Virus record (IMG/VR): IMGVR_UViG_3300026549_002453
Source of the DNA: a virus
Lineage: Duplodnaviria; Heunggongvirae; Uroviricota; Caudoviricetes
Direction: 5' to 3' (one strand)
Length of the DNA stretch: 29,078 nucleotides
The notes below the pieces were generated by a model that was given only the letters and a program-made list of their open reading frames with translations, did not search any database and was not told where the DNA came from. The stretch's first letter is position 1; each line of letters starts with the position of its first letter. The translations under genes and the position numbers were made by a program. Shown one piece after another: positions 3,212-25,212 of this stretch.

Positions 3212-4216
3212 TTGAAAATTTGTATATATACCGATGTACATTTTTCACAAACTTCTTCTATAGTAAGAGGTAATGGAAAAAAGTATAGTACGAGATTAGA
3301 ACAGTTAATAGAGAGCGTTAATTGGGCGGAGAATCTTGCAGTTGAACATAACTGTGATGCAGTGTATAACTTGGGCGACTTTGTAGATAAGTCATCTATG
3401 AATGCACAAGAAATTTCAGCTATATCTGAAATACAGTGGGCAAAGGTTCCCCATACCTGTATATTGGGTAATCATGAGATAAAAGATAGAAATAAGGATT
3501 TTTCCAGCCTTCATGTCCTTAAGTTACTAGGGTTTGACCTCATCACGGAACCATCCGAAGTAGAATGTGGAAACATAAGTCTTTGTTACTTACCCTACAT
3601 GTTTGAATATAAGTCTCTTGATGAAATTTTTCCTGACAGCGTGGGAAAGAAGAGAATAGTATTTAGCCATAATGATATTGAAGGTATTCAGTTAGGTGGG
3701 TATATTTTTGACAAAGGTTTTTCTCTTGTAGACATATCTAAGAGTTGTGAACTCTTTCTTAATGGTCATATTCATGCTTATGGAGAGTATGGCAACCTGA
3801 TTAATCTAGGTAACCTTTGTGGTCAAAACTTCGGAGAGCACAATGTACCTCACAGAGCTTATATATTGGATACTGAAACATTAGAGCTAACTCATTTTGA
3901 AAATCCATATGCATTGAATTTTTATAAAATAGATTGTACAACTAAAATAAAAGACATAAAATTAAAAAATAATGCAGTACTAACAATAAAAGCAACTGAG
4001 GATAACATAGAGGAAGTTAAAAATATATTTAATAATAAGAAAAATGTTATTGATATAAAATACACAGTTGTACCTAAATTGATAAATAATAACGAAAATA
4101 AACCTGCAGAAGATATAATTCAGATAGACCACCTTCAGTCTTTGAGAGAGTATATACTTAAAGAACTTGGCGAAACAGAGGTAGTAAAAGAAGAGCTGAA
4201 TATTTTAACAAAATAA
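3212..4216 (+). CDS. SbcD/Mre11-like (T4 gp47-like) metallophosphoesterase nuclease
   Basis: Motifs DVH, LGD, GNHE, SHN and GHIH; adjacent to the SbcC-like gene. Confidence 0.9.
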   Translation: MKICIYTDVHFSQTSSIVRGNGKKYSTRLEQLIESVNWAENLAVEHNCDAVYNLGDFVDKSSMNAQEISAISEIQWAKVPHTCILGNHEIKDRNKDFSSLHVLKLLGFDLITEPSEVECGNISLCYLPYMFEYKSLDEIFPDSVGKKRIVFSHNDIEGIQLGGYIFDKGFSLVDISKSCELFLNGHIHAYGEYGNLINLGNLCGQNFGEHNVPHRAYILDTETLELTHFENPYALNFYKIDCTTKIKDIKLKNNAVLTIKATEDNIEEVKNIFNNKKNVIDIKYTVVPKLINNNENKPAEDIIQIDHLQSLREYILKELGETEVVKEELNILTK

Positions 4217-4226
4217 GGAGAAGTTA

Positions 4227-4478
4227 ATGAATGTAGAATTTGAATTTCATGAAATTATAAGCTATGGAATTATTATTTTATCTGTAATTTTTGCTATTAT
4301 CAAAAGACCCAATACTACTCAAAAGTCTAAAAATAATACTGAAAAACCTGTTATAAATGGAAAGACAATAGAGATTAAATCTATTAAATTACCGTTTTTT
4401 GACAGTTCAGATGATAGCCTGAGCAGTGAGTTTAATGGTAAATCTAGTAAAGAAGATAATAATCCGTTTGAGGTATAA
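4227..4478 (+). CDS. small membrane-anchored hypothetical protein
   Basis: RBS AAGGAG; N-terminal hydrophobic helix. Confidence 0.6.
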   Translation: MNVEFEFHEIISYGIIILSVIFAIIKRPNTTQKSKNNTEKPVINGKTIEIKSIKLPFFDSSDDSLSSEFNGKSSKEDNNPFEV

Positions 4479-4982: not shown

Positions 4983-5447
4983 ATGCCAGGAAATGCACAT
5001 GCAAAAATGCAGATTGTAGTTGAAGTTGAAATATCAGTAAAAGATAAATTATCAGAAGCACAAACAAATGTTGCGTTTGATATAGTTGAGGAGTCTATTA
5101 CTAAAATTCTAGATTATAATAATTTTGAGATAAAAGAAGAAGATTGTAGAAGTCTTTCTTCTGTACATAATAACTATATACTAAAAACGCAGTATAGTGT
5201 TACTCTACTAATTGAATGTGACCTTCGTATCATACCTGGTACTTATCAGGAACCATCTGAAGTGGATTGGAGCGATACGATATTTTATGAAAACGTGGAT
5301 GATTTTAATAGTATGAAACTAGGTATGGAAAATTATATTAAGGAGCGCTTCACTAAAGATGAATCATTAAAAAATCTGGGCTTTGTAGAAAGTTTAGTAA
5401 ATTTTAGAGTAGTAGGAGCCCCTCATTTTGAATGGAAGAGAGTATGA
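4983..5447 (+). CDS. hypothetical protein
   Basis: RBS AAGGAG; 154 aa; overlaps the next gene (ATGA). Confidence 0.65.
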   Translation: MPGNAHAKMQIVVEVEISVKDKLSEAQTNVAFDIVEESITKILDYNNFEIKEEDCRSLSSVHNNYILKTQYSVTLLIECDLRIIPGTYQEPSEVDWSDTIFYENVDDFNSMKLGMENYIKERFTKDESLKNLGFVESLVNFRVVGAPHFEWKRV

Positions 5448-6001
5448 CTACAAAATTAAGTATTACCAAAAACAAAAGTAAAGAAACACAGAACACCTCG
5501 GTAATAGAAAAAATTAAAAAGAGCCCTTGGTCAGCCCTAGCGGCAAAATTACTCATAACTATAGTAATAATTTTAGGGTTGCTTAAATTTGTCATTGGAA
5601 TAAATATTTATTACGGTAACAATATGTTTCCAGCTATGAACGATGGCACCCTTATCATTACATACAAATTAAATAAAAATATATATTCAGAACTTATAGT
5701 TGCTTATAATGTAAATGATAAAACAAGGTTTGGTAGAATAGTGGGGGTCCCCGGGGATATTATATATCTAGACGATACCGGCAAATTTACTATTAACGGT
5801 AACATTGTCTCTGAAAATAATATTTTTTACAATACCTTTGAGGGCGAAGGAGTGATATACCCGTACACCGTGCCTGAAAATAGTTATTTTATATTAAATG
5901 ACTACAGAGAAAACACAGAAGACAGTAGAACCTATGGGGCAATAAATAAGAAAGATATAGCGGGTCAAGTTTACCTAGAACTTCAGAGGAGAGGATTTTA
6001 G
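5444..6001 (+). CDS. signal peptidase I fold protein, SipA/LepA-like with non-catalytic residues
   Basis: TM helix followed by S26 boxes: GNNMFPA (Ser replaced by Asn), RFGRIVGVPGD (Lys replaced by Gly), YFILNDYRENTEDSRTYG. Confidence 0.8.
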   Translation: MTTKLSITKNKSKETQNTSVIEKIKKSPWSALAAKLLITIVIILGLLKFVIGINIYYGNNMFPAMNDGTLIITYKLNKNIYSELIVAYNVNDKTRFGRIVGVPGDIIYLDDTGKFTINGNIVSENNIFYNTFEGEGVIYPYTVPENSYFILNDYRENTEDSRTYGAINKKDIAGQVYLELQRRGF

Positions 6002-6960: not shown

Positions 6961-7743
6961 TTGATTAACAATGTAATTTATATGAAAAAATTAGGAAATA
7001 CATTAAACAATACGTATGATAGAATATTGGTAGGGGTGTTTGTCTTATTGCTCCTACTTTCTTGCTATATGGCTTATGACACTTGGTATGTTAGGTATGT
7101 TTCTGCGGGGTCTGATTACAATGCGTATAAACCAAGTTTAGACAATCCTGATGCTTATAATGAATTATCTGACGAGTGTATAGGATGGATAACTCTAGAC
7201 CGTACGAGCATAGATTACCCAATTATGCAGGCTAAGGACAATAATAAATATCTTAATACTAATCCGTACGGTGAATATAGCTTAGCGGGCAGTATCTTCC
7301 TTGATTATAAAAATAGTCCTGACTTTAGTGACCCTTTTAGTCTAGTATATGGTCATCATATGTCTATGAGGCAATCTGTATTTTTACAAAATCGTAATGA
7401 TGAGTCATATGATATAGCGAAAGACCCTGGCAGGAACTCCATGTTTGGAGCCCTGGACCTTTTTAATGAACTAGAATACTTTAATGAACATACCACTGGA
7501 ACTCTGACTGCTGAGGGAAAAGTTTATAATCTAGAAATATTTGCGTTTACTATAACGGATGCTAATGAGAGTATCATATTTGACCCTACTAATTACAAGG
7601 GTCAGTATGAATGGGTACAGAAAAATAATATATACTTTAGGGAGCCTCTGTATAAGGATAGAATAGTAGCTCTAAGTACTTGTAAAGACCCAGGCACAAC
7701 AGAAAGAACAATACTATTTTGTAGTATAAGTGAGTACCCATAA
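6961..7743 (+). CDS. srtB: class B sortase
   Basis: N-terminal TM; GWI, IDYPIMQAKDNNKYL, GSIFLD, catalytic YGHHM, LSTC and a downstream Arg (TERTIL). Start uncertain (6961 TTG or 6982 ATG). Confidence 0.88.
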   Translation: MINNVIYMKKLGNTLNNTYDRILVGVFVLLLLLSCYMAYDTWYVRYVSAGSDYNAYKPSLDNPDAYNELSDECIGWITLDRTSIDYPIMQAKDNNKYLNTNPYGEYSLAGSIFLDYKNSPDFSDPFSLVYGHHMSMRQSVFLQNRNDESYDIAKDPGRNSMFGALDLFNELEYFNEHTTGTLTAEGKVYNLEIFAFTITDANESIIFDPTNYKGQYEWVQKNNIYFREPLYKDRIVALSTCKDPGTTERTILFCSISEYP

Positions 7744-21056: not shown

Positions 21057-21085
21057 TTTACAAATTTTTTGAGATAGTTTATAAT
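21057..21085 (+). promoter_or_regulatory. sigmaA/sigma70-type promoter for the RNA/tRNA cluster
   Basis: TTTACA-17 bp-TATAAT. Confidence 0.8.
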
Positions 21086-21109
21086 TATATTTAATAATAA
21101 GAAAAAAGA

Positions 21110-21293: not shown

Positions 21294-21366
21294 GCAGTTA
21301 TAGTTTAATGGAAAATGTCGCTTTCCCAGGGACGGATGCAAGTATCAAACCTTGCTGACTGCTCCA
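21294..21366 (+). tRNA. tRNA-Gly (TCC, possibly CCC), degenerate
   Basis: Acceptor GCAGTTA/TGACTGC, discriminator T plus CCA, D loop AATGG, anticodon arm GTCGC-TTTCCCA-GGGAC with a G-G mismatch, 8-nt T loop TATCAAAC. Confidence 0.65.
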
Positions 21367-21459: not shown

Positions 21460-21641
21460 GAATGATAATTATATTTAATAATAAGAAGTTGAAGAATTAA
21501 ATTGTTATTTCTTTTCATTATATAGTTTTTTACTTATCACCTCGGTAAAAAGCATATAACTTATTACAAACTTAGATAGGTTCTTTGTAAAATAACATCC
21601 TATCAAAATAATTTATCAAGTTAAAGAAAGGATTAAACAAA

Positions 21642-22076: not shown

Positions 22077-22129
22077 TTTCCAAAATAAAATAACTTAGTC
22101 ACGTGGAAATTTAGAGATATAAAATTGGG

Positions 22130-22209
22130 CCCGACACTGTAAGTAGTGGGAGTCATTCGTTTACTCAGTATAGGTGGATGATTCGGGATTGTGTGAGGGT
22201 AACACACAA
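22130..22209 (+). ncRNA. putative structured RNA
   Basis: Stems CACT/AGTG, GAGTCATTCG/TGGATGATTC and TTGTGTG/CACACAA. Confidence 0.4.
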
Positions 22210-22214
22210 CTTTA

Positions 22215-22291
22215 GTGATTCTAACTGCAATTTTACAAGATAACAGTACAAATTTTCTTAGAATTTGAATAAGACCGGAGATAGAATCATG
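22215..22291 (+). ncRNA. ACWGCAA stem-motif RNA, copy A
   Basis: GTGATTC-TA-ACTGCAA...GAATCATG. Confidence 0.6.
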
Positions 22292-22295
22292 TAAT

Positions 22296-22456
22296 AAGAA
22301 TTAAATAATAGAATTGCTCATATATTGGTCTATATGGAAGATATTAATCCATAGAATTTCCTCCTATAGTAACAAACACAGAAATAATTGATACTAATAA
22401 AGAGGTAACGTCAACAGGTAAATAGGTCATAGATATAAGTACTATATTTAATTCTT
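22296..22456 (+). ncRNA. putative rod-like ncRNA containing an anti-SD tract
   Basis: 12-bp closing stem AAGAATTAAATA/TATTTAATTCTT, inner stems TGCT/AGTA and TGGTCTAT/ATAGGTCA, CCTCCT in the central loop. Confidence 0.45.
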
Positions 22457-22459
22457 CTT

Positions 22460-22583
22460 TTAGAACTACTCGGCGGTTTAGCTTAAGTCTTTCAACTGCT
22501 TGGGTGGTGAACAGCAATTACTAAAGCACTAACATCGTAAGTTAGAGATGAGAGTTTGAGTCCTTGTTCACTAGTAGTTCTAA
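22460..22583 (+). ncRNA. tRNA-like RNA nested in a closing stem (ACAGCAA variant)
   Basis: 11-bp stem TTAGAACTACT/AGTAGTTCTAA; inner GGTGAAC/GTTCACT, arm CTAAC-ATCGTAA-GTTAG, degenerate T loop TTTGAGT. Confidence 0.5.
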
Positions 22584-22588
22584 TTTTT

Positions 22589-22665
22589 CGGAATGTGGCG
22601 CAGTTTGGTAGCGCAACTGCTTTGGGAGCAGTGGGTCGCAGGTTCGAATCCTGCTATTCCGACCA
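22589..22665 (+). tRNA. tRNA-Pro (TGG)
   Basis: CGGAATG/TATTCCG acceptor, GCGC D stem, ACTGC-TTTGGGA-GCAGT, GCAGG-TTCGAAT-CCTGC, ACCA end. Confidence 0.96.
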
Positions 22666-22811
22666 TCGCCCTCAAACGTGCGAAAAAGAATGCCCTCTAC
22701 AATCTGTGGATTGGTATAACACTGTAGGATGCGTCCTATAAGATTGGGAGATTATTAGTTTCTCGTGAAAGCTCGCTCTTTACGGAGAGAATGAGAAAGG
22801 CAAAGGTTTAT

Positions 22812-22885
22812 GGATTCTTAGTTCAATGGTAGAACATGCGGCTGTTAACCGTAGAACGAAAGTTCGACTCTTTCAGAATCCGCCA
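22812..22885 (+). tRNA. tRNA-Asn (GTT)
   Basis: GGATTCT/AGAATCC acceptor, GTTC/GAAC D stem, TGCGG-CTGTTAA-CCGTA, GAAAG-TTCGACT-CTTTC, GCCA end. Confidence 0.94.
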
Positions 22886-23296
22886 TACTGAAAAAGAAAG
22901 ATTAGGGTTGAAAGTAGCCCTACATTCTAGATATCATTTCTTTTTCGGTTGTATATTAATTCCAATGCAACTTAATAGATATAGTGCACTTTGTTTATTA
23001 AGAGAAGTTCACCTTGATGCACCAAGGCTATCTAAGGCGTAGGATAGATAGAACAGTACCCGTACATATGAATTCAAGAATTTCCCTATAACAAAATCGG
23101 GGAGGGATGCAAGAGAACTGAAGGAATTAGTGTAACATCATACGCAGTTACGTCACTGCGTCATATCCCACAATATGTGAGGAGAAATTAAATGAGTCGC
23201 GTTGATTAACCGCAAGTTCGCAATAGTTAATCTTTTGTCCGACAAGGACACTTCCTATACAGGAAGATAGGATATAGAGAATTCTATATCCTTCAT

Positions 23297-23409
23297 GGAG
23301 AATAAGCTAACAAAAATGATGCATGAAAGATGTAACATACACAAAGGATGTGCGGTAACAAACGACGGAGAAATTCGTCTGGCGAGTGGTTCGACTCCAC
23401 TATTCTCCT
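23297..23409 (+). ncRNA. tRNA-like RNA (acceptor + T arm, expanded non-canonical middle)
   Basis: GGAGAAT/ATTCTCC and AGTGG-TTCGACT-CCACT; about 80 nt between them with small hairpins; no encoded CCA. Confidence 0.65.
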
Positions 23410-23468
23410 TAGAGAGGTCCTGCTTTAGTGGACGATTCAGAAATTAGGCAGATATTTTTTCTGCCTAT

Positions 23469-23521
23469 GGGTTCAAGTTACAAGCCTCCTCGTGGCGAAC
23501 CTGGGTAGCTCTAATTGTAAC
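23469..23521 (+). ncRNA. minimal HDV-like (theta-type) self-cleaving ribozyme
   Basis: P1 GGGTTC/GAACCT (G1-U wobble), P2 GTTACAA/TTGTAAC, P3 GCC/GGC, L3 TCCTCGT, P1.1 CC/GG, J4/2 CTAA with the catalytic C at 23511. Confidence 0.85.
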
Positions 23522-23528
23522 AAGTAGT

Positions 23529-23585
23529 GTGATTTGTACAGCAAATACAAGAACAGATATGTAAGGGTAACATAATCAAATCATG
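23529..23585 (+). ncRNA. ACWGCAA stem-motif RNA, copy B
   Basis: GTGATTT-GT-ACAGCAA...AAATCATG. Confidence 0.65.
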
Positions 23586-23588
23586 GAT

Positions 23589-23677
23589 ATTTTCAAACTT
23601 CTATAGTGACTCAAACAGCAACTATTGCAAGTATTGATAAGGTTTAATGCAGAGTCATGCATAATAAGTTTGAAAAT
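23589..23677 (+). ncRNA. ACWGCAA stem-motif RNA, copy C (core 23606-23659) within a 12-bp outer stem
   Basis: GTGACTC-AA-ACAGCAA...GAGTCATG enclosed by ATTTTCAAACTT/AAGTTTGAAAAT, ending just before the RBS of the next gene. Confidence 0.65.
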
Positions 23678-23697
23678 GAAAGAAAGGAAAAAGAAAT

Positions 23698-25158
23698 ATG
23701 AAGTTTGAAGATGCAATTAAAAATGAAGTAAGAGAAACAGTTACAGAGAACGGTCAAAGAGCACTTAATTCTACAGGAAATAATTGTCTTGACTTTTTTG
23801 CTGTGGCAGGAGCTTTAAGACAGGCAGATAAGGATAGAATAACAAGATTGTTTGAAGATGCATATAATGAAGATGCTCTTCTTGCTACTAAGACATTGTT
23901 CTATCTTAGAGATGTTCGTGGGGGTCTCGGAGAAAGAGATACCTTTAGAACAATCTTAAATTACGCTGCCGATAATCATCCAGAAGCAGTAATTAAGAAT
24001 CTTAGACTTATTGCTGAATTTGGTCGTTGGGATGACTTATATTCTTTGGTTGGTACTTATCTTGAAGATGCTATGTGGGCTCTTGTTAAGGAACAGCTTG
24101 ATAAGGATATAACTAATATGTATGCTAAAAAGCCAGTATCTCTTCTTGCTAAGTGGTTAAAGACTGCTGATGCAAGCTCTGAAAATACAAGAAAGCAGGG
24201 CATAAATACAGCGATTAAACTTGGTTATAAAGTATATGATTATAAGAGAATAATTAAGGCTCTTAGAAAGTATATTGATGTAACTGAAGTTAAAATGTCT
24301 CAAAATAAGTGGGACGAAATAAACTATAGTGCAGTTCCTTCTAAGGCTATGACCAACTATAGAAATGCTTTCTATAGACATGATGAAGAAGGATTTAGAG
24401 ACTACACAAATAAGGTGGTTAGAGGAGAAGAAAAGATTAACGCTTCTACTCTGTATCCTTACGATATTATTGAGAAGTTCATATACTACAATATGAATGG
24501 TATCGATGATAATGAGAATAAAATTCTTAATGCACAATGGAATGCTCTTCCTAACTATGTAGAAGAAGGTAATGTTATCGTTATGGCAGATACTTCTGGC
24601 TCTATGACAGGCAGACCTCTTAATACTGCTATTTCTTTAGCTATCTATTTTGCCCAGAGAAATACAGGTGCTTATCATAATTTGTGGATGAGTTTCAGCA
24701 GAAACCCTAAGTTCCACAAGATTAAAGGTAAAGGACTTGAGCAGATTATTAAAAGCATTGACTATAGGGATTGGGAAATGAACACTGATTTAAATAAGGC
24801 TATGGAAAAGATATTGGAAGTAGCTATAAAAAATCATGTGGCTCCAGAAGACCTTCCTAAATCACTTGTAGTTATTTCTGATATGGAAATCGATGCTTGT
24901 ACAGGTGAACTTTTCCATGACCATCTTGTAGAAATGTATGAAAAGGCTGGATATGTACTACCAAATATTATATTCTGGAATGTACAGTCTAGACACGATA
25001 CTTTACACGCAGATGCAAAGAGAAGAGGGGTACAGCTTGTATCTGGAAGTTCTCCTTCTGTATTTGCACATACGATGAAGATAATTGACATGACTCCAGT
25101 AGAAGCCATGCTTGAAATATTAAATAGCGAAAGATACAGTTGTATTGAAGTCGCTTAA
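23698..25158 (+). CDS. DUF2828-family protein (TROVE/Ro60-like helical domain + vWA/MIDAS domain)
   Basis: TENG..AL.STG..CLDFF, FYLRDVRGGLGER, FGRWDDL, LLAKWL, VPSKAM, INASTLYPYDI, MIDAS ADTSGSM, ISDMEID, IIFWN, VSGSSP. Confidence 0.88.
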   Translation: MKFEDAIKNEVRETVTENGQRALNSTGNNCLDFFAVAGALRQADKDRITRLFEDAYNEDALLATKTLFYLRDVRGGLGERDTFRTILNYAADNHPEAVIKNLRLIAEFGRWDDLYSLVGTYLEDAMWALVKEQLDKDITNMYAKKPVSLLAKWLKTADASSENTRKQGINTAIKLGYKVYDYKRIIKALRKYIDVTEVKMSQNKWDEINYSAVPSKAMTNYRNAFYRHDEEGFRDYTNKVVRGEEKINASTLYPYDIIEKFIYYNMNGIDDNENKILNAQWNALPNYVEEGNVIVMADTSGSMTGRPLNTAISLAIYFAQRNTGAYHNLWMSFSRNPKFHKIKGKGLEQIIKSIDYRDWEMNTDLNKAMEKILEVAIKNHVAPEDLPKSLVVISDMEIDACTGELFHDHLVEMYEKAGYVLPNIIFWNVQSRHDTLHADAKRRGVQLVSGSSPSVFAHTMKIIDMTPVEAMLEILNSERYSCIEVA

Positions 25159-25176: not shown

Positions 25177-25212
25177 GGGATACATGGCGTTTGCTGTGTA
25201 TCCCTTTTATTT
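25177..25212 (+). terminator. Rho-independent terminator
   Basis: GGGATACATGGC-GTTT-GCTGTGTATCCC followed by TTTTATTT. Confidence 0.88.

Follow-up and report, generated by a model that had tools for sequence, protein, structure and literature searches.

An orphan toxI-like repeat beside a predicted theta ribozyme in a viral tRNA cluster

Introduction

Cleavage by HDV-like ribozymes leaves a cyclic phosphate on the upstream product and a 5'-OH on the downstream one. Minimal HDV-like ribozymes, the theta class, have been catalogued in phage genomes (Kienbeck et al. 2024, PMC10879173), where 742 of the 1,281 occurrences are tRNA-associated, with the cut no more than 5 nt from the tRNA 3' end, and 526 are not. 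Among the latter, 493 are intergenic and >96% lie sense to the nearest gene; the accessible part of the paper gives no function for them. All four theta ribozymes assayed in that work cleaved.

Type III toxin-antitoxin systems are defined by the succession of a repeat array, a terminator, and a toxin gene (PMC3401426, PMC5086642). According to the accessible text of the sources, the toxin ToxN cuts its own repeat RNA, is blocked by it, and processes its own precursor (PMC5086642), and is freed once phage shut-off drains toxI (PMC13728456). Pectobacterium phage TE carries a pseudo-ToxI, an intergenic toxI-like repeat without toxN; selection raised its 1.5 repeats to 4.5 to 5.5, and abortive infection was suppressed by expanded or hijacked loci alone (Blower et al. 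2012, PMC3475682). Finally, among the Ro60/Y RNA loci (PMC4201824, PMC12135203), the Ro60 protein of phage phiLo binds RNAs encoded upstream of its own gene (PMC12135203).

Here we describe a locus that touches on all these systems. It lies in a stretch of 29,078 nt (IMG/VR record IMGVR_UViG_3300026549_002453), referred to below as the window. From its tRNA cluster, PHROG matches, sortase, and signal peptidase, we infer that the window is a portion of a large phage with a Bacillota host; it is covered for the most part by metagenome and metatranscriptome runs from the bovine gut. Its other genes include those for a RelA/SpoT-domain protein, the sortase, and the signal peptidase (among 594-1334, 6961-7743, and 5432-6001), and from 26070 to the end runs a long acidic ORF, open-ended and rich in His/Cys at its start.

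Results

The ribozyme is a catalogued theta ribozyme

An earlier note on this DNA had reported an HDV-like ribozyme upstream of a DUF2828 gene. Its elements are as follows.

23469..23521, plus strand: minimal HDV-like (theta) ribozyme, Theta7888; predicted cut 5' of G23469, catalytic C23511
23469-23474/23497-23502, plus strand: P1, 6 bp, with a G1-U wobble
23475-76, plus strand: J1/2
23477-83/23515-21, plus strand: P2
23484-86/23494-96, plus strand: P3, with L3 at 23487-93
23503-04, plus strand: GG of P1.1
23505-10, plus strand: linker of 6 nt, no real P4 helix
23511-14, plus strand: J4/2, with C23511 in the first position

Every element of the nested double pseudoknot is where the note had placed it, except that the stretch taken for a rudimentary P4 is a mere linker. 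The fold is real and beyond chance: P1, P1.1, P2, and P3 form the nested double pseudoknot without P4 of the published descriptor, with G23469 at position 1 and C23511 first in J4/2. A 7-bp P1 starting from U23468 is formally possible but consumes a G required by P1.1, and the published parse of Theta7888 begins at G23469 (PMC10879173). In a descriptor search of both strands of the window, the ribozyme was the sole match, and 1,000 dinucleotide-preserving shuffles gave no match to the minimal descriptor and one to the loose descriptor. Decoy descriptors with A and G had no matches; the U decoy matched the ribozyme site via a 5-nt reading of J4/2. The descriptor search suggested in the note thus recovers 23469-23521 and nothing else. 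Rfam has no ribozyme match in the window at E <= 1.

The 53-mer is identical to number 7888 (row 6136 of Supplementary Data 2, one occurrence), listed among 7,704 non-tRNA-associated examples (PMC10879173); in the accessible part of the tRNA-associated table of the same paper, no row has its closing P2 strand. The ribozyme itself is already known, and the earlier note overrated it in this respect, as both the sequence and the non-tRNA class are published (PMC10879173). Besides sequence and parse, the locus shares with the theta ribozymes of that catalogue an origin in the mammalian gut, an intergenic position, and, like most of the class, an orientation sense to the next gene. It differs in having no suppressor tRNA called in the window, where ORFs read through in code 11, and in having an antitoxin repeat in its upstream product, whereas the published non-tRNA class comes without a given function in the accessible text. 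Judging by titles and the starts of abstracts, none of the later theta ribozyme papers listed in a search concerns the non-tRNA class, and two exact-pattern scans of the viral collection for the window ribozyme returned no matches. We predict that the ribozyme is very likely an active self-cleaver.

A pattern scan of viral contigs yielded 117 ribozyme loci from 36 of the 64 parts of the collection; together with three from DUF2828 loci, these gave 57 distinct ribozymes, 31 in the tRNA register and 26 not. In 25 of the 31, the T-loop G and G1 are 21 nt apart, which places G1 directly after the discriminator. A stem-loop ending no more than 5 nt from the cut is present in 11 of the 26 non-tRNA ribozymes versus 18 of 246 control positions (Fisher p = 8e-6, with controls that are not independent). 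A hairpin 5' of the cut, which might have seemed special to this locus, is therefore a feature common in the non-tRNA class; its possible roles are the insulation of folding and 3'-end protection. Two non-tRNA theta ribozymes (L097 and L109, among loci L050-L165) adjoin tmRNA 3' ends.

A toxI repeat fills the gap upstream of the predicted cut

The ribozyme is preceded by a block of tRNA and noncoding RNA genes, the last parts of which are listed here.

22589-22665, plus strand: tRNA-Pro (ARAGORN, Rfam), in the cluster upstream of the ribozyme
22812-22885, plus strand: tRNA-Asn (ARAGORN, Rfam); with tRNA-Pro, the nearest canonical tRNAs upstream of the ribozyme
23297..23409, plus strand: tRNA-like RNA, 113 nt, with a 7-bp acceptor stem, a T arm at 23385-23401, and the discriminator at 23409
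23409..23442, plus strand: single toxI (type III antitoxin) repeat, 34 nt; no toxN in the window
23445..23467, plus strand: hairpin, 8 bp, in the toxIN terminator position, without a U-tract and not called as a terminator

In the tRNA-like RNA, an acceptor stem of the usual open form surrounds an 81-nt interior that is not tRNA (fold z = -3.4). ARAGORN makes a poor call of this RNA, at a lowered threshold only, and in 22 of 24 nt its acceptor 3' strand and T arm agree with tRNA-Tyr/Ser genes from other phages. It was rejected as a Y RNA, a kind marked by a GNCGAA motif and a permuted T-acceptor-D order, because its acceptor stem is ordinary and open and the window has no Rfam YrlA match. For large RNAs of the ROOL or GOLLD kind and for tmRNA, this block yielded no Rfam match, and ARAGORN made only guesses at a low threshold. 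Positions 22077-22588 and 22886-23296, between the tRNAs, have few ORFs and many hairpins, are covered by RNA contigs, and have no Rfam match. A relative (X16) is without 23132-23295 and has 22318-22444 replaced, so blocks between tRNAs look modular. Further upstream, a degenerate tRNA-Gly-like gene (21294-21366, with an anticodon-stem mismatch and an 8-nt T loop) stands directly 5' of tRNA-Ser, and a 23-nt exact direct repeat (21081-21103 and 21465-21487) brackets this pair; it is possibly a promoter or a recombination scar.

The distance from the tRNA-like end to G1 (23409 to G1) is 59 nt, in agreement with the roughly 60 nt given earlier and with the view of a theta-type ribozyme away from a tRNA end; thus, the locus falls outside the tRNA-associated category. 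The hairpin reported at 23445-23467 is present, with a pair probability of 1.0. What had been overlooked is the RNA directly upstream of the cut, which is not the tRNA-like RNA but an orphan toxI repeat with this hairpin. Homology to toxI begins at 23409, the discriminator position; the repeat ends 26 nt before the ribozyme, and the hairpin begins ~2 nt after the repeat.

The window repeat is identical in 33 of 34 positions to that of the bacterial locus L287, in 31, 31, and 26 of 34 to the copies in L283, in 30 of 34 to that in L288, and in 30 and 32 of 34 to the two copies in the viral locus L251. In L251, L283, and L287, this 34-nt unit is arrayed before a terminator and toxN. Because such near-identical copies stand in loci with the repeat array-terminator-toxin layout, we take the window unit for a toxI repeat, and by sequence it is almost certainly toxI-derived. 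A CRISPR reading was rejected, as the copies abut without spacers and precede toxN. An H-type pseudoknot can be drawn for the repeat (23417-20/23430-33, plus a short stem to 23423-26); its 4-bp stem is invariant, lies inside the search pattern, and shows no covariation.

The window does not hold a complete type III locus. There is one copy, no U-tract, and no toxN in the 29 kb by tblastn, the window being part of a phage genome; comparison with the leaders of 22 viral toxN loci and of L283 and L287 disclosed no further toxI-type repeats in it. Rfam gave no ToxI-family match to the repeat on the loci scanned, the plasmid and cultured-phage collections had no real match, and the repeat is not among the rows of the accessible part of the Blower 2012 type III table. 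Compared with the described ToxIN/AbiQ loci (PMC5086642, PMC3401426, as far as their accessible text goes), the window has the same 34-nt repeat followed by a hairpin, and differs in having a single copy, no toxN, no promoter of its own found, no U-tract, and no Rfam ToxI match. A promoter scan of the window found 17 sites versus 17.4 expected, no excess over chance; between the repeat and the DUF2828 ORF, the scan, itself not above chance, gave no plus-strand promoter-like site, and there is no true terminator.

The same repeat occurs in native toxIN loci and as orphans

A search of viral contigs for the exact 21-nt core of the repeat returned 14 loci in seven groups by flank. In one group, which is native (L246, L251, L252, and L255), the repeat is present twice at a 34-nt spacing, with a -10-like box ahead of the pair and, after it, a hairpin whose tail is rich in U, and the ToxN gene follows. 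ToxN of L251 matches PF13958 (E = 1.2e-32), AbiQ in PADLOC (E = 6.7e-33), and ToxN of Bacillus thuringiensis (4ATO; E = 2.2e-14). Thus, as in the ToxIN/AbiQ systems (PMC5086642, PMC3401426), the cognate toxin is a PF13958 ToxN, and its closest solved relative also comes with 34-nt repeats. Complete toxIN loci on viral contigs (L246, L251, L252, and L255; L261-L282) have several repeat types, of 34 to 37 nt.

Among bacterial genomes, the repeat core was found in 2 of 401 sampled from the family of a Lachnospiraceae genome and in 1 of 401 sampled from the class of a Bacilli genome. In L283, three copies at 34-nt spacing and a terminator precede a toxN-like gene split in two. A copy of the repeat and a terminator come before a toxN 73% identical over residues 4-103 in L287 and before a toxN remnant in L288; the repeat of L284 stands alone, toxN being absent from the 1.5 kb around it. 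Where toxIN is native, no more than ~2 nt separate the end of the last repeat from the start of the terminator hairpin. The window hairpin is in the same place and is followed by the ribozyme, with no U-tract.

The remaining 10 of the 14 viral loci, in six groups (L247-L250, L253, L254, and L256-L259), are without a ToxN-like match. PF13958 was absent from the whole records of all 10, four of which are 93 to 100% complete, and was found in the L251 record, used as a positive control. Two of the six orphan groups are beside tRNA genes, and several orphan repeats are followed by hairpins or terminators. In L249, a complete 394-kb genome, the repeat precedes an ACAGCAA motif, tRNA-Asp, and a DUF2828 gene, without a ribozyme; the tRNA cluster that holds this orphan repeat also has a GOLLD-like RNA (4037-4473, minus strand; 90.9 bits, below the gathering threshold). 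None of the 14 viral repeat loci has a ribozyme within 2.5 kb.

Judged on the window, the locus is a phage-borne toxI-like repeat without toxN, like pseudo-ToxI. With that of phage TE (Blower et al. 2012, PMC3475682, accessible text), it shares the intergenic position, the absence of toxN, and a low basic copy number; a possible tandem expansion, with two copies on one phage-matching RNA contig (X2, see below), would be a further parallel. In contrast to the TE repeat, which is degenerate, the window repeat is near-identical to a toxI repeat (33 of 34); its neighbors within a tRNA cluster are a tRNA-like RNA on one side and a ribozyme on the other; and it recurs in six other environmental viral groups without laboratory selection. 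Activity has been demonstrated for TE and is putative for the window locus.

The DUF2828 gene and its leader

Downstream of the ribozyme, the window has the following features.

23530..23585, plus strand: first ACAGCAA stem motif, a 6-bp stem round a variable insert, starting 9 nt after the ribozyme
23607..23659, plus strand: second ACAGCAA stem motif
23698..25158, plus strand: DUF2828/vWA gene (Pfam), 486 aa, predicted Ro60 (TROVE) fold
25177..25204, plus strand: intrinsic-terminator-like hairpin after the DUF2828 gene

The DUF2828 protein matches phrog_850, RNA-binding protein (E = 1e-134). Its model (pLDDT 89.9) displays the helical-repeat ring and vWA domain of Ro60/TROVE proteins, and the 12 best Foldseek matches listed are all Ro60/TROVE structures, including the phage phiLo protein (Foldseek E = 9e-9 and TM 0.55-0.60 against Ro60). 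We therefore predict a Ro60 fold. As in described Ro60/Y RNA loci, including that of phiLo (PMC4201824, PMC12135203, accessible text), structured RNAs and a tRNA-like RNA lie upstream of the protein. The differences are the 11 to 16% identity to solved Ro60s, the lack of a YrlA match in the window, and a leader motif in which a stem holds ACAGCAA in place of GNCGAA or CGAA.

Proteins 72 to 99% identical to this one exist. A locus search by single sequence found nothing; an alignment search fetched 128 DUF2828 loci at the DNA level, with relatives at most 58% identical, and 112 of them have at least 300 nt upstream. None of these 112 has a ribozyme within 1 kb upstream of DUF2828. The counter-example, L126, comes from the ribozyme-first search (1 of 80 ribozyme loci with long flanks); it has a small ORF, two similar stem motifs, and DUF2828 ~380 nt downstream, and its ribozyme is in the tRNA register, with the T-loop 21 nt upstream. 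Hence, the claim of a ribozyme in the DUF2828 leader is true of the window, but the ribozyme is not a regular part of such leaders, and the association, although real, is uncommon and probably secondary. Ribozymes and DUF2828 leaders are both common in phage tRNA clusters, so the two can meet by proximity.

The ACAGCAA motif is present in 55 of 92 distinct DUF2828 leaders (L001-L048 and L166-L245) versus 6 of 92 inside the gene, and a 6-bp stem whose pair types vary is closed by 76 of 100 copies (control mean, 12). A leader often has several copies, and a tRNA-like insert is present in some cases. ACAGCAA also follows the ribozyme, 38 to 197 nt downstream, in four further ribozyme loci. An Rfam scan of five leader loci gave no family for the motif and a weak YrlA match in L235 (E = 0.018, below threshold), and literature searches did not turn up the motif. 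These stems are candidate Y-RNA-like ligands or autoregulatory sites and merit separate study; the RNAs upstream of the phiLo gene to which its Ro60 binds have a different motif (PMC12135203, accessible text).

DNA and RNA contigs around the predicted cut

Contigs from an independent DNA run (X4) show the same arrangement as the window over 23337-23720, with all listed differences 3' of the ribozyme, and DNA contigs of both X1, possibly the run from which the window derives, and X4 bridge 23468/69. By contrast, none of the RNA contigs of X2, X3, and X16 (two samples, two studies) bridges this site: those holding the DUF2828 leader start at 23483 (X2), 23509 (X3, same sample), and 23500 (X16, another study), 14 to 40 nt past the predicted cut. 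With RNA ends judged from assembled contigs, this is a weak hint of a break at the predicted cut. X3 has no cover at 23250-23483, to which we attach no weight, and the loose ends of the X2 and X3 RNA contigs resemble sequencing adapter. Another X3 contig, matching 23484-23516, belongs to a second, different theta ribozyme with one extra P1 base; this RNA contig also ends inside the ribozyme, near its 5' end.

Contigs branch at 23411-23442, within the repeat. One X2 RNA contig is identical to window 22598-23439 and then continues with five letters, a second repeat copy, a different hairpin, and ~211 nt unlike the window. The depths of the X2 contigs, 150 upstream versus 28 downstream, are not taken as an expression ranking. 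The X2 ribozyme core is on the DUF2828 contig, apart from the tandem repeats. Because the tandem repeats lead to other sequence and the ribozyme core stays with DUF2828, the adjacency of repeat and ribozyme is not fixed. This suggests that, in the X2 strain, the repeat has expanded in tandem and does not adjoin the ribozyme; possibly, the tandem copy is an assembly chimera with a bacterial array. Loops from 23442 to 23411 in X1 were not counted as phage repeat expansion, since bacterial arrays in the same sample could yield them.

Discussion

We see about an even chance that the orphan toxI repeat is a decoy for host ToxN and that a predicted ribozyme cut frees the hairpin-capped repeat RNA from the mRNA of the Ro60-fold protein. 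A single transcript would run from the tRNA cluster through the tRNA-like RNA, the toxI repeat, the hairpin, and the ribozyme into DUF2828. Self-cleavage at 23468/23469 would yield two RNAs: the upstream one would end in the repeat and hairpin and bear a cyclic phosphate, and the downstream one, starting with a 5'-OH, would comprise the ribozyme, the two stems, and the DUF2828 ORF. By HDV chemistry, the cut would thus do what the earlier note proposed, ending an upstream noncoding RNA and giving the DUF2828 side a 5'-OH; the adjoining RNA, however, is the toxI repeat with its hairpin. In bacterial toxIN operons, a leaky terminator ends most of the antitoxin RNA. Here, the ribozyme would supply a terminator-like 3' boundary while transcription into the next gene continues. 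The repeat might gain its 5' end through 3' processing of the tRNA kind at 23409, or ToxN itself might cut at the A-rich junction. The released repeat would then bind and neutralise ToxN, and tandem expansion might follow under high ToxIN pressure.

The two halves of this proposal differ in strength. Phage shut-off frees ToxN by draining toxI, so repeat RNA made by the phage would replenish the toxI pool; a decoy role of the repeat is somewhat favored as a putative function. The window copy is near-perfect and lies among tRNA genes, which we presume to be strongly expressed; as only expanded arrays suppressed abortive infection in phage TE, a single copy may be a latent reserve. That the ribozyme is retained for the sake of the decoy is rather doubtful, because the other orphan repeat loci manage without one. 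With no ribozyme near any of the 14 viral repeat loci and a ToxN that processes its own precursor, a decoy would not need it, and the pairing of repeat and ribozyme may be incidental.

The start of toxI homology at the discriminator and the cassette that fills the gap to G1 would also suit a ribozyme that once adjoined the tRNA-like RNA, in the position usual for the tRNA register (25 of 31), until a 59-nt toxI-plus-hairpin cassette from a host toxIN was inserted between them, so that it now ends a longer RNA by accident. Relatives do gain and lose modules hereabouts, as in X16. We nevertheless consider such a displacement unlikely, as no cassette-free relative was found (the tRNA-like end pattern matched only 2 ordinary tRNAs in the viral collection) and X4 has the arrangement of the window.

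In the view of the earlier note, the ribozyme belongs to the downstream unit. It would define where an RNA begins that holds the Ro60-fold ORF and two ACAGCAA stems, with the toxI repeat as a mere neighbor. The X2 contigs, in which the ribozyme core stays with DUF2828 and the repeat leads elsewhere, are in its favor, as are the layout of L126, the ACAGCAA copies downstream of four further ribozymes, and the phiLo precedent (PMC12135203, accessible text). Yet DUF2828 leaders that so often carry ACAGCAA had a ribozyme in none of 112 loci, and the L126 ribozyme is in the tRNA register, which makes this view improbable.

The repeat could, in turn, be a neutral recombination relic of a host or prophage toxIN with no anti-defence role, and the ribozyme an ordinary separator that ends the noncoding RNA block. 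A single copy would fit, 1.5 copies being inactive in phage TE (PMC3475682, accessible text), as would the lone repeat of bacterial L284 and a hairpin that is generic for non-tRNA theta ribozymes. This seems quite improbable given the tandem copies in X2 and a repeat core that six further viral groups share to the letter, in unrelated flanks and, for two of these groups, beside tRNA genes, an exactness that is partly by construction of the 21-mer search. Finally, it is highly improbable that the ribozyme is misfolded or inactive in its context, as could follow from the ~6 bp that nested-structure folding places between the repeat region and the ribozyme (P2 probability falls from 0.56 to 0.19 in a model without pseudoknots) and from the standing of Theta7888 as a single occurrence outside the four assayed theta ribozymes (PMC10879173, accessible text), because the published descriptor parse is matched perfectly with all stems intact, X4 lists no difference there, and RNA contigs do not bridge the site.

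In the open-licence literature, we found no earlier report of orphan toxI repeats in environmental viral groups or of one bounded by a ribozyme. What is new here, then, is a variant of pseudo-ToxI: orphan toxI repeats in several environmental viral groups, one of them ribozyme-bounded. The orphan repeats would be natural examples of RNA antitoxin mimicry, which our searches otherwise found only as the laboratory-selected case of phage TE, and the context offers a testable job for one of the many non-tRNA theta ribozymes. More tentatively, Bacillota phages of the gut and rumen may widely carry captured, near-perfect toxI repeats as RNA decoys against ToxIN, expressed from tRNA and noncoding RNA clusters and expandable in tandem, with the window lineage maturing its decoy by a theta ribozyme in place of the terminator U-tract. 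If true, this would be the first link of a self-cleaving ribozyme to an anti-defence RNA. Scanning phage tRNA clusters systematically for type III repeats that are orphans could uncover anti-defence RNAs of a class invisible to protein-based screens.
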